Below are positions 1 through 4,632 of a stretch of 64,000 nucleotides of DNA, piece by piece. The notes beneath the pieces were generated by a model that saw only the letters and a program-made list of their open reading frames with translations, was not told where the DNA came from and made no database searches. Where the stretch lies: assembly GCA_963422375.2 (NCBI GenBank), contig OY729428.2:2624001-2688000 (forward strand), read 5' to 3'. Source of the stretch: Bryobacterales bacterium. Its GTDB lineage: Bacteria; Acidobacteriota; Terriglobia; Bryobacterales; UBA6623. A program made the translations under genes and the position numbers. The first letter of the stretch is position 1; the number at the start of each line of letters is the position of its first letter.

Positions 1-345
1 GGTTGCACACCATTCCTGAACCCTGTCTATTCAAGATTTGGATTCAGGGGAATCCAGATCGATGTCGGCTGCCAATTCAGCCGGTAGAAAGCGTCCATCC
101 TTGAGATGATCCATCTCTCTGTCGCGCACGATTTGGCCCACTATATGTACGTTATCCGCCAGAAAATACAGTGCGATCATCTGCCTAAATCCCTCCACTT
201 CTCGGTCCATGACAACGGTCCATTCCGCGACACCAGAGATTGTTTTTCCAACTCCACTGCCGGCTATTTCTGCCTAGAATCCACGAAATTTGGCGCGTTT
301 TTCGTCTCCTATTCTGCCTTCAATAGCCTCCGATTTCGCGGCACA
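1..345 (-). pseudogene. Heavily decayed 3' part of an ISNCY-type transposase element, homologous to ~4120-4482
   Basis: Reverse complement aligns by eye with the ISNCY copy: ggaccgagaagtggagggatttaggcagatgatc...gtgggccaaatcgtgcgcgacagagag...cttgaatagacagggttcaggaatggtgtgcaac versus ggaccggggagcggagggattcgagcggatgatc...gtgggccggatcgtgcgcgacagagag...cttgaagagacaaggttcaggaaaagtgtacaac. Stops and indels present; inner boundary approximate. Confidence 0.8.
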
Positions 346-554
346 GATGATTCATTGAGATTCCTTGATCTGTTGTGTCAATGACCTACTTAGGGTATGC
401 TTCGTCCTAGCCATAATGTCCAATATGCGAGCAGTTAAGAGGTGGGATGGCGTTCTTTCTGGAATGGTGTATACTCGTAGATATGGCAGTCATTGCTGTA
501 ACCTAAGTGCTTCCCGCCTGGGAAAACCCGGAGTTCCGACTGGAAGAGGTGGTC

Positions 555-1248
555 GTGCGCCTGACGCAGCCCGACGAGCGGCTGGAGTGGAACAGCCAGG
601 CTAACTGGCGAATGGACAGGGAGTGAGAGTCTCCTAGTGCAGAGGATGAGCCGATTCATGCATTTCCACGAAGAATGCGCAGGTCGCCGCGAGGCGGTGG
701 GTGAAGCGTTGACAGTGGCGCGTGCGGGCAGAGCATCGAGAAGCGCAAACATAGTCCGGGGTGTCGAGACTATCGCTAGGATCGAAGGCAATACGGTGCC
801 TAGCGCTACAGGCGTGTGGCGCGGCGGCCCCGCGGTGTCGAAGACTTCAAGGCACGCACGTACGTCCAGCGCCGGGACCTAGGAGGCCTCTGTGCTTGCG
901 CGGCGAAGCCGTGGACACCGAAGTCGAGGCAGGAGCCGAGCGGAGCACGCACGGCGCGGGGGAGTCGGACTTGCGCATAGTACCGAGGAAGCTGACGAAC
1001 AAGGAGCGGGCAGCCGCGCGGCGGAGTGGGTGGAGGGAAGGCCCGTGCATGACGGGAGGAGTCCGAGGGAAGCGAGCTGCGGACGCGGGGCCGAGCGAAC
1101 CGGACACAGTGCCGGGGTAACACGAGCCGACATGGAGCGACACGGCGCCCGGAAGGGCTACCGTCACAACTGGAGTGAGGAGCCGGATGCGTTAGCACGC
1201 ACGTCCAGATCTTCGGGGGCGGGGGGGGAACCGGCATCCTACCGCAAC
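555..1248 (+). ncRNA. ORF-less group II intron (IIB-like, resembling bacterial class E/F)
   Basis: 5' GTGCG at 555; DII/DIII-like motifs gggagtcggacttgcgcatagtaccgaggaagctgacgaacaagg and gcggagtgggtggagggaagg; DIV opener ccggacacagtgccgggg; domain V gagccggatgcgttagcacgcacgtccagatct (~1180-1212, AGC triad); DVI ending cctaccgcaac at 1248. No RT ORF. Confidence 0.85.
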
Positions 1249-2402
1249 GGACCGGCGAATGGACCAAGGGCACTACCTGCGCACCCGCCCGTTCGCGGGG
1301 GCCGCGGGCTGCGCTAGTGTTCTCCGCCAGAAGTTCTTGACCAGTGGGCAGAGCCTGTGGTACCGTGCTCTCGCAGGAGGGGTGCGAGCGTGCCGAAGCA
1401 CCCCACAAGGGCGGTCCCGAAGGTCTCTGACGAGCAGCGCGGGGAGTTGCAGGGCTGGCTGCGCCGGAGCAAGACGGGGCAGTCGCTGGCGCTGAGGGCG
1501 CGTATCGTCCTCCCATGCGCCGACGGCAAGAGCGACATGGCCGTGGCGGCCGCTCTCGGCACCACGCGCGCCAGCGTCGGCAAGTGGCGGCGCCGGTTCC
1601 CGAGCGACGGCTGCGACGGATGGCTGGACGAGCCGCGGCCGGGAGCGCCGCGCAAGGTCAGCGACGGAGACGTCGAGCGCGTCGTGACGCGCACTTGGGA
1701 GTCGCTCCCGCGCGGGGCAACGCGATGGAGCCGCGATGGAGCCGCGAGTCGATGGCGACGGACTGCGGCCCGAGCCCCTCGACCGTGGGCCGCATCCGGC
1801 GCGCCTGCGGCCTCAAGCCAAGCCGCACCGCTGCGAAACGTTCAAGCTGTCGAAGGACCCGTTGTGCGTGGAGCAAGTGCGCGATATCACCGGCCTGTAC
1901 CATCACCGGCCTGTACCTGGACCCGCCGGAACGGGCTGTCGTGCTGTGCGTGGACGAGAAATCGCAAATCCAAGCCCTGGACCGCACCCGGCCCGTGCTG
2001 CCGATGCGCCCCGGCCTGCCGGAGCGCCGCACGCACGACTACAAGCGGAACGGCGCGACCTCGCTCTTCGCAGCCCTGAACACGGCCACCGGCGAGGTGA
2101 TCGGCAAGTGCTGCCGGCGGCACCGCTCGGTGGAGTTCAAGAAGTTCCTCGCACTCGTCGACAAGGCGGTGCCGCCGGACCTCGACATCCATCTCGTGCT
2201 CGACAACTACGGCACGCACAAGACGGCGATGATCCACAACTGGCTGGGGCGGCATCCGCGCTTCCACTTGCACTTCACGCCGACGAGCGCCTCGTGGATC
2301 AAGCAGGTCGAGCGCTGGTTCGCGGAACTCACGCGCCGTCAGATCCGGCGTGACACGCACCGCAGCACGCTGGCGCTGGAGAAGGCGATCAAGGAGTACC
2401 TA

Positions 2403-2657
2403 GTGCCTGTGACAAAACTCGTATCCCCTTGACAACAAAGGCGTTAGGTCCAATCTCTCAAGGCGAAGATTTCACTGGAATGCTACGACTAGTCCGAAAT
2501 CCTACCAATTCTGGGTAGAGCGCGGAAATCTTCGCGATTGGCGGCTGAGCAACTTCCGACCTTGGGCCCTATATGTTGTGTTTGGAGATCCATCCGACAT
2601 CAGGATATAGTATGAAATGCTGATCGGGCCAGAGTTCAAGGGTTTTGTCACAAGCAC
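2403..2657. mobile_element. 255-bp non-coding MITE with ISNCY-type terminal inverted repeats
   Basis: Ends gtgcctgtgacaaaac / gttttgtcacaagcac; 6-bp direct repeat TACCTA at 2397-2402 and 2658-2663; AT-richer interior with no long ORF. Confidence 0.9.
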
Positions 2658-2747
2658 TACCTAGCTGTCTACAACGAGGATCCGAGGCCCTTCGTCTGGA
2701 CGAAGACGGCCGACCAAATCCTCGAATCGCTCAAATCTTACTATATA

Positions 2748-4632
2748 GTGCTTGTGACAGAACGCGCAAGCCCTTAGTTTTCGGGCGGTTGCAGCAGGTC
2801 CGTGGGACGAAGATCGGGGCGATCCGGGCCGGCTTGCGCGTTTCCGGGGGTTGTGCGACAATCTTCGTTGAGGAACCGCCCGTGAGGACCGTTCAGGAGA
2901 TCCAGCTCACCCTTGGCCGGACTGCAATCGAGGATATCGATCCCGACGTCCGTTCCCGCGACGATATCCCGGCCATTTTGCCAGGAATACAATTTATCTA
3001 TCGCACCGAGTTATCGATCGCACCGAGGAGTTGCGGGACAGGGTTTTCGCACTGCTCGAGATCCGTATCCTCGGCCTCGGTGAGAGTAGCGGGAACGGCG
3101 AGAACGGAAGCGATCCTTCCGCAGGCGAGTCCGGCAGGATCAACCCTGCCGTCGGTCGTCCCGGCATGCAGCTGTGGAACATTCTCGTCCCGGGCCTGCT
3201 CAAGCAGGGATTGAATTGCGACTGCGACCGCGTGACGGAGCTGGCGAACAAGCACGCGGACGTCCGGCGCTTCCTCGGTCTGAACGCGACGCTCGACGAG
3301 CGGGTGTTCAGCTACCGGACAGTCAACCGGAATCCGAAGCTTCTCACGCCCGACCTCCTCGCGGAAATCAATCAGCTGGTCGCGCAGGAGGGGCACGCGC
3401 TGGCGGGGTGCGAGGAAGGCGATCCGCTGAAGGCGCGGTGCGACTCTTTCGCGGTGGAAACGAACGTGCATTGCCCGACGGACGTGAGTCTGCTGCGGGA
3501 CGCGTTGCGCTGCCTGATTCGCTCTATTGCGCCGCTGTGCAAGGGGCGCGGCATCGCCGGCTGGCGGCAGAGCGCGCGGCTGCCGAAGACGCTGAAGCAG
3601 GAATTCAACCGGGTGCGGCAGGCGAAGAGGAGGAAAGGCAACCCGGAGAGGGTGCGGTCGTACCTGGAGGCGGCCCTGGAGATAGCGCGGCGGGCGGAGG
3701 GTGCGCTGGCGGCCCTGGCGCGGGCCGGGGAAGACGAGGGAACCTTGGGAGCGGCAAGGAGTGACCTCGGGTGCGTGCAGCTCCTGGCGGACCCGGTGGA
3801 GCGGCGCGTGCTGCGGGGGGAGAAGATCCCGCACGAGGAGAAAGTGTTCTCGATCTTCGAGGAACACACGCGCTGGTGCGTGCAAGGAAAAGCGGGGGTG
3901 CCGGTGGAGCCGGGCGTTCCGGTATGCATCGTGGAAAGCGAGCACCGCTTCGTGATGAATCACGAAGTGACGTGGAAGGGGAGCGACGCGGACGTAGCGG
4001 TGGGAATCGTCGAGGGGGCGCAGGGGCTGTACGCGGGGTTGTCGAGCTGCAGCTTCGACAAGGGCTTTCACAGCCCGGCGAACCGGACGCGCTTGGCGGA
4101 TACTGCTGTCGTGCCACGCGATGCCGCGGAAGGGGAGGCGGTCGAAGGCGGCGAAGGAGACGGAAGGCGCGCCCGAATTCGCGGCAGCGAGGCAGGCGCA
4201 CCCGGCCGTGGAGTCCGCGATCAACAATCTCGAGTGCCGCGGTCCGGACAGGGTGACGGACCGGGGAGCGGAGGGATTCGAGCGGATGATCGGGCTGGCG
4301 GTCCTGGCGGCGAACGTGCATCGAGTGGGCCGGATCGTGCGCGACAGAGAGATCGTGCGCGACAGAGAGAGGGAGCGTCTCAAGACGGGACCCTTGCCGC
4401 TGGCTGCATAGGCAGTCGGCAGCGATCTGAATTGCCCTGAATTGAAACCTTGAAGAGACAAGGTTCAGGAAAAGTGTACAACTAGAACAGAACTAACTGT
4501 ATCCTCACAATGAAAATGGAATATGAGGCAATGAATTCGGGTAATTGGCGCAGCCCGTTTCTTCCATAGCTATCATTTGGTCGGGATCTATCAGCTAGAA
4601 TCCCCAAAATATCAGGGTTTTGTCACAAGCAC
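2748..4632 (+). mobile_element. ISNCY-type insertion sequence (1885 bp) nested in IS630
   Basis: Ends gtgcttgtgacagaac / gttttgtcacaagcac; TATATA target duplication at 2742-2747 and 4633-4638. Confidence 0.9.
2882..4411 (+). pseudogene. ISNCY-type DDE transposase, frameshifted near 3010 and ~4110
   Basis: MRTVQEIQLTLG...RSRDDIPAIL; ARCDSFAVETNVHCPTDVSLL; GEKIPHEEKVFSIFEEHTRW; CSFDKGFHS; HPAVESAINNLE. Coding is split over three frames. Confidence 0.85.

Follow-up and report, generated by a model that had tools for sequence, protein, structure and literature searches.

A decaying ORF-less group II intron from a Bryobacterales genome and its probable membership of a mobile lineage that starts with GAACAG

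We analysed a 64,000-nucleotide stretch of DNA from a Bryobacterales bacterium, hereafter the window, whose sequence supports the presence of an ORF-less, non-autonomous group II intron. The intron extends from position 590 to 1248 (659 nt) and its first bases are GAACAG. Group II introns have the 5' consensus GUGYG, whose bases join core tertiary contacts. We consider it likely that the window copy is a stranded and decaying intron without an ORF, from a retromobile group II lineage that carries GAACAG and not GUGYG at this end. For its relatives, comparison of the copies establishes exact ends, choice of target by EBS1, precise insertion and recent multiplication. What makes the window copy of value is that it points to a mobile lineage whose 5' end departs from the consensus.

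Extent, parts and decay of the intron in the window

The original prediction proposed a group II intron of 694 nt at 555-1248 starting with GTGCG. Its group II scaffold is borne out by an Rfam scan of the window, where RF02005 (group-II-D1D4-6) matches at 626-847 with 95.3 bits (cut-off 49) and RF00029 matches at 1178-1248 with 29.7 bits and an E-value of 0.0035, under the cut-off of 40; a search of the whole genome of this bacterium with RF00029 returned 0 matches despite the E-value in the window-only scan. The predicted 3' end at 1248 is also correct. The 5' end is elsewhere. BLAST with the intron flanks identified three intron-free paralogs in the same genome (C1:1254643, C1:630254 and C2:3166823), all of which contain bases 555-589 and pass directly into 1249 onward. 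Because 555-589 sit in intron-free paralogs, the 5' end of the intron is at 590 and not at 555, and the relevant spliced junction is 589/1249 in place of the predicted 554/1249. Copies in related genomes share the window sequence from 590 on, have unrelated flanks and diverge upstream of 590. One independent contig (run X8, 537-803, 1 difference) crosses the 589/590 junction and a second one crosses the 3' junction. With a family profile that has the window copy among its members, nhmmer scores 590-1248 at 557.6 bits.

A canonical GUGCG intron at 555-1248 splicing 554 to 1249 is therefore highly improbable. GTGCG does occur at 555-559, and GACTATC at 768-774, the proposed EBS1, is indeed a 7-bp complement of GGTGGTC at 548-554. 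However, this GTGCG falls within codons of the host gene and the closing stem of domain I opens only at 596, 41 nt past 555, while 768-773 belong to the 5' side of the stem that carries EBS1 and to delta, EBS1 itself being 774-779. Between the EBS1 region (starts 756-790) and the 5' flank (starts 341-600) there are 10 perfect pairings of 7-mers if G-U is allowed, this one among them, and the strand has 1.8 GTGYG per kb, which makes both the GTGCG start and the pairing attributable to chance. The GAACAG end was missed because the earlier reading was anchored on this chance GTGCG.

Two neighbouring extents were tried and rejected: a start at 587 (GTGGA) is contradicted by the empty alleles, and an extent of 591-1249 by the 3' exons of relatives, which open with T or C, yet the first G of the intron is constant. 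GUGYG is absent at the start of the intron, where GAACAG stands instead, and does not occur between 590 and the domain I stem. Since GUGYG is a consensus with known exceptions, its absence is no ground for exclusion; it marks a variant and leaves group II membership intact. The parts of the intron and of its host element are listed below, all on the plus strand.

341-589, plus strand: 5' exon, start of a decayed insertion sequence (IS) with a DruA/DUF4338-like domain and an ISAs1 transposase
584-589, plus strand: IBS1 (GGAGTG), the final six bases of the 5' exon; pairs with EBS1 at 4 of 6 positions
590-1248, plus strand: ORF-less group II intron, 659 nt, defined by empty-site paralogs, family 5' and 3' ends and nhmmer
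590-595, plus strand: non-canonical 5' end GAACAG; sister introns have GTGCG or GAGCG before the same domain I stem
596-882, plus strand: domain I, from the RF02005 match at 626-847 and consensus pairs in the family alignment
596-600 with 878-882, plus strand: domain I closing stem, with a copy-specific mismatch, 881 G>A
773, plus strand: delta, adjoining EBS1
774-779, plus strand: EBS1 (CGCTAG), in the loop of stem 768-771/780-783; register set by family covariation
792, plus strand: candidate EBS3
about 885-966, plus strand: domain II, from alignment and consensus fold
967, plus strand: gamma (G967) in J2/3, pairing with the last intron base, C1248
970-1047, plus strand: domain III, from alignment and consensus fold
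1048-1179, plus strand: domain IV, short at about 130 nt and free of an RT ORF; remnant common to other ORF-less members
1180-1211, plus strand: domain V of 32 nt, with its AGC triad (1181-1183) and its AC bulge (1201-1202) retained
1212-1248, plus strand: domain VI and 3' end; bulged branch A1241 retained, stem eroded and 2 nt shorter than in sisters, ends AAC
1249-1316, plus strand: 3' exon remnant, 68 bp
1317-2748, plus strand: IS630-family relic, inserted after TA 1315-1316 and severing the host gene

The domain I consensus has 89 pairs, 46 of them with two-sided changes among 19 sequences; 95% of its cells are paired, compared to 37-41% when the structure, derived from the same alignment, is slid. 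The RNA appears to be IIB-type and class E-like. As predicted, the intron has no RT ORF, its longest stop-free frame being 122 aa and without YADD. Domain IV is short, as had been claimed, at about 130 nt from the end of domain III (1047) to domain V (1180); the claimed figure of about 60 nt fits only if counted from a hairpin near 1100.

The host is itself in ruins. Its 5' exon is 81% identical to the paralog at C1:1254643, and the host paralogs match PF14236 (DruA) and NF033564 (ISAs1). The host gene carries an in-frame stop at 504-506, and neither the window nor the 8 kb upstream contains its remainder. Elsewhere (L159:132-2423, L005, L010), DruA/DUF4338 domains lie upstream of IS4 and ISAs1 transposases or are fused with them. 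The surroundings of the intron are an insertion graveyard: 1317-4440 is a pile of broken IS elements (IS630, ISNCY-like) and another multicopy end lies at 2-343. Inside the IS630 relic, a 259-bp element (2401-2659) has dozens of copies of 87-97% identity spread over all three contigs; its ends resemble the end of an ISNCY-like element starting near 2740, of which it is probably a miniature. A hammerhead match at 1391-1443 (E 0.53), within the IS630 frame, was regarded as chance.

The window copy is most likely dead and has no likely function. By leave-one-out folding, 4 of its 23 DV-DVI pairs are broken, compared to 0-1 of 25 in 11 relatives, while its 19 broken DI-DIII pairs out of 131 do not make it a clear outlier against 4-18 in relatives. 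Counted at columns invariant in the others, private changes number 58 in the window copy and 15-34 in each of the other four ORF-less elements; those of the window copy include the domain I closing stem (881) and G>A changes in domain V at 1197 and 1207. The domain V mismatch at A1207 and the eroded domain VI had both been noted in the original prediction and are confirmed. Mismatches are also found in the domain III closing stem, and as a single sequence the intron folds no better than shuffles (z -0.06).

Could the copy nevertheless be a working ribozyme, splicing alone or with an unseen maturase? Residual activity is conceivable because the catalytic triad, the bulge, the branch A and gamma-gamma' are intact, as are the four pairs of EBS1 that lie closest to the splice site, and five sequencing runs, drawn from two studies, contain identical DNA (one possibly the source sample). 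No RNA run was listed among them, which bears neither way on expression; four runs compared with the sequence gave no joints, and runs that cover it only in part proved not to be empty alleles. Against this stand the two private domain V changes, the eroded domain VI and the mismatched closing stems of domains I and III. Furthermore, the host is truncated and carries a stop codon, so splicing would be under no selection, no sigma-70-like promoter was found in 250-620 and the genome revealed no intact helper. We consider a working copy unlikely and favour a decayed one.

The original prediction suggested a search of the genome for siblings and an RT-encoding parent. Siblings exist as remains: profile scans found one ORF-less relic without a 5' end (152 bits) and short 5' pieces, two of them with GAACAG (G000:C2:1727574-1728050, C2:3449971, C1:1260024-1260091 and C2:3626033-3626155). 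An intact parent was not recovered. No intact group II RT/maturase was found in the assembly; with the genome 96% complete, the assembly may lack a helper RT. What was found is one broken group II RT and fragments, the best match being 46% with a stop and a frameshift. The group II intron at L001 (G000:C1:1224000-1226500) has a broken RT (stop, frameshift, YADAA) and apparent IS copies on both flanks. An intact 337-aa RT at L002:1297-2310, which we take to resemble the RT of a diversity-generating retroelement, scores far under the group II cut-off. The prediction of an ORF-less, non-autonomous and probably dead intron holds up well, and in relatives introns of this ORF-less design have been amplified next to intact RT introns.

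The GAACAG family and its 5' splice site

A DNA search found matches to the window intron in 22 of 41 related genomes, its own genome counted. The GAACAG motif (at most 1 mismatch) occurs in 12 of the 31 genomes of the genus, with 5 matches to a reversed control pattern; among the motif matches in the genus genomes, L129 proved to be no intron. In GTDB, 42 GAACAG loci were found, 40 of them in records titled Bryobacterales; the other two are on a Chloroflexota chromosome and on a 2.6-kb Gemmatimonadetes contig that is possibly misbinned. These loci overlap the related genomes already used, and sites were counted by distinct 20-nt flank. The metagenome scan for the family yielded 1 locus and the viral RT scan none. 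Outside the genus, the short pattern was found in 4 of 300 genomes of the phylum, none with a match to the intron profile, and was attributed to chance.

The family comes in two forms. RT-bearing members are 1.92-1.94 kb long and have intact RT ORFs with YADD after their GAACAG starts; they carry an RT and a maturase domain (PF00078, PF08388, TIGR04416), and the one member scanned with TIGR04416 was over the cut-off. ORF-less members are 652-674 nt. A 538-nt copy at L082:2093-2630 (minus strand) has about 114 nt deleted in domain I.

Judged from these copies, the GAACAG start is a family trait and not peculiar to the window copy. The opposite reading, a one-off 5' lesion or assembly artefact, would fit a decayed copy, and 5'-truncated introns are common. 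However, the same start recurs across the GTDB loci and the genus genomes, it precedes intact RTs that are 58-83% identical to one another and an independent contig crosses 589/590, leaving this reading a vanishingly small probability.

Where the family is cut at its 5' side can be read from the pairing between EBS1 and the exon. At 30 of 33 sites, five or six bases of the hexamer in the EBS1 loop pair with the six that precede GAACAG, whereas at other offsets (-4 to +6) at most 4 of the 33 reach that level. The 28 distinct EBS1/IBS1 pairs contain 128 Watson-Crick pairs compared to a shuffled mean of 64, and 0 of 10000 shuffles were as high, although kin are not independent. In the enlarged set of loci, with 18 EBS1 variants, pairing of at least 5/6 is found at 38 of 41 readable sites, and exon base -1 covaries with EBS1 base 1 (C-G 34, G-C 3, G-T 2, U-A 2). 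All 18 of 18 GTGCG and GAGCG sisters pair at the same offset. These counts exclude tandem junctions, copies in which another intron is nested ahead of EBS1 and those unmatched by the EBS1-region pattern, such as L082, L087, L091, L105, L117 and L122. Exact empty alleles (12 in G021, 29 in G015 and 33 in G008) indicate precise insertion, with flanking bases neither gained nor lost. Gamma-gamma' is complementary in all 11 readable rows of 12, as G-C, A-U or U-A, but the candidate EBS3 pairs with IBS3, the first base of the 3' exon, in only 6 of 11 rows. Taken over the family, this covariation places the 5' splice site directly before GAACAG and shows it to be set by EBS1-IBS1.

Counted from this splice site, G1 and C4 are retained, position 3 is A in place of G and the domain I stem is preceded by an extra base; position 5 is A in GAACAG introns and G in L134 and L135. 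We take C4 to be half of epsilon-epsilon', which could still form in GAACAG introns, and the AAGC motif to be epsilon'/lambda'. No compensating change was found at the AAGC motif, which is invariant in 19 of 19 sequences. Tandem copies read AAY/GAACAG (L048, L114, L124), in agreement with the tandem integration described in PMC12584367.

Mobility, relationships and proposed mechanism

The family has been mobile recently, for in one relative (G021) the eight ORF-less GAACAG copies examined differ from each other by 0-5 nt. They occupy DruA-transposase genes as well as unrelated sites. Also in G021 are 34 related RT genes that are full-length and free of stops, and the six examined belong to a GTGCG-starting intron. 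At 7.3 Mb and with 102 RT matches, G021 carries an extreme group II intron load for the genus. By eye, the introns of the window and of G021 enter a homologous DruA motif about 9 nt apart.

Another relative, G015, has 25 GAACAG motif matches, many of them nested in domain VI of another abundant intron whose identity was judged by eye. RT-bearing GAACAG introns lie in the apparent domain VI of another intron at L060, L063-L074 and L138-L144 (G008, G015). With the host intron at about 33 empty copies per genome in both, this looks like large-scale twintron formation. ORF-less and GAGCG-start introns were also seen within other group II introns (L056, L057, L049, L054), in domain I, after domain V and near the YADD codons of an RT.

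The GAACAG start is old, because the RTs behind it are 58-83% identical to one another and 60-78% to that of a GTGCG sister. Two trees suggest a single origin, a single clade of GAACAG RTs having SH-aLRT support of 94 in one and 80/91 in the other; with a larger taxon set the clade is not resolved (AU p 0.32). The tree with more taxa excluded 8 of 21 elements, in which no RT frame was readable, as well as a 111-aa piece and a plasmid row. On DII-DIII, the five full-length ORF-less elements cluster (100/98) regardless of their start, while the best matches to domain I of the window copy are RT-bearing GAACAG introns, at 80-81% as against 67-75% for the ORF-less ones, which hints at domain swapping between the two forms.

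We propose a pathway whose steps are drawn from established group II biology. Family members would be transcribed from their host element and would splice with the help of an RT/maturase, probably via a lariat joining the domain VI adenosine to G1. The excised intron would then reverse-splice into DNA sites complementary to EBS1 and be copied by the RT, with ORF-less members borrowing the RT of related RT-bearing introns. The window copy would have entered a DruA/ISAs1 element, after which host and intron decayed.

We favour the lariat route because the branch A is retained and the junctions are exact. The lariat step is uncertain because hydrolysis was the only route by which class E introns self-spliced in vitro, yielding only linear intron (PMC3753933). 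In the main rival pathway, the family would splice through hydrolysis or circularisation and move in the form of linear RNA, the loss of GUGYG reflecting relaxed selection on branching; the identity of the element would be unaffected. In addition to the class E result, introns with shifted 5' ends lose branching (PMC4024640). On the other hand, intact GAACAG members retain the bulged A and the full domain VI stem, and their insertions are base-exact at both ends, the lariat being the form able to reverse-splice completely and faithfully (PMC12584367). Movement as linear RNA seems improbable to us, and the lariat route is the one we retain.

It is conceivable that the GAACAG introns form an undescribed, actively retrohoming lineage that branches and reverse-splices without GUGYG and without epsilon' compensation. 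Its ORF-less derivatives would be amplified like miniature elements by the RT of a GUGCG-starting sister, with domain I swapped with RT-bearing GAACAG introns. We give this fuller hypothesis about an even chance.

Comparison with known introns

The class E label of the GAACAG family is our own tentative assignment, made by exclusion of the D, g1, g2 and g3 references, to whose labelled RTs its RTs are 28-36% identical. The nearest annotated plasmid RTs are 50-54% identical to family RTs; two of these five plasmid loci have a readable start, GAGCG and GTGCG. The reference labels come from the supplements of PMC3552965, where the published starts of the D, g1, g2 and g3 references are GTGCG, GTGCG, GCGTG and GTGTG.

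Like the class E/F (IIE/IIF) introns without an endonuclease domain, as described in PMC3753933 and PMC3552965, the family has a IIB-like six-domain RNA with an RF02005 match, and its ribozyme size falls within the 450-700 nt quoted there for IIE/IIF. Unlike them, it begins with GAACAG, six bases before the domain I stem. The class E features given in PMC3753933 are alpha' at the tip of the DId3 stem-loop and a 5-nt domain V loop.

ORF-less bacterial introns are portrayed, in PMC4424553 and PMC3245105, as rare, as having lost mobility and as nearly always standing beside a related RT intron. The GAACAG family resembles such introns served in trans (same two sources) in its lost RT ORF, its short domain IV and the intact related RT introns of G021. 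It differs in having at least eight near-identical ORF-less copies at several targets, and the window's genome differs in showing no intact helper. The family presents ORF-less introns spreading to many sites within one genome, contrary to the rare-and-immobile view.

The family also shares with EcKTE56.groEL (PMC12584367) a second copy at the exon-intron junction, where the first G of the intron serves as IBS3 (compare L048 and L114). EcKTE56.groEL differs in belonging to the IIB1 lineage, starting with GTGCG and being aimed at translation signals.

With respect to the 5' end, reviews give GUGYG...AY as the boundary, and the sole 5' exceptions named in PMC4424553 splice upstream of a retained GUGYG. 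Among titles and abstract openings, we found no description of a group II intron starting with GAACAG, and further boundary surveys could hold one. Boundary predictors that follow the class consensus would misplace GAACAG introns.

A further parallel is offered by C.te.I1 of Clostridium tetani and the fungal mitochondrial rRNA introns with shifted 5' splice sites discussed in PMC4024640. As in these, EBS1-IBS1 and not an adjacent GUGYG fixes the 5' site. C.te.I1 and the rRNA introns retain GUGYG 1-33 nt downstream, are hydrolytic where tested and have lost RT-driven mobility, and the shifted-site rRNA introns are without EBS2 and the branch A (same text, citing Li et al. 2011). The GAACAG family, unlike this type, has no GUGYG, retains the branch A and, by the comparisons above, still retrotransposes. 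McNeil and Zimmerly suggest (PMC4024640) that mobile introns may need IBS1 adjoining GUGYG for reverse splicing. This requirement becomes directly testable in a natural lineage that multiplies despite having no GUGYG, for which the close GUGCG and GAGCG sisters can serve as controls.
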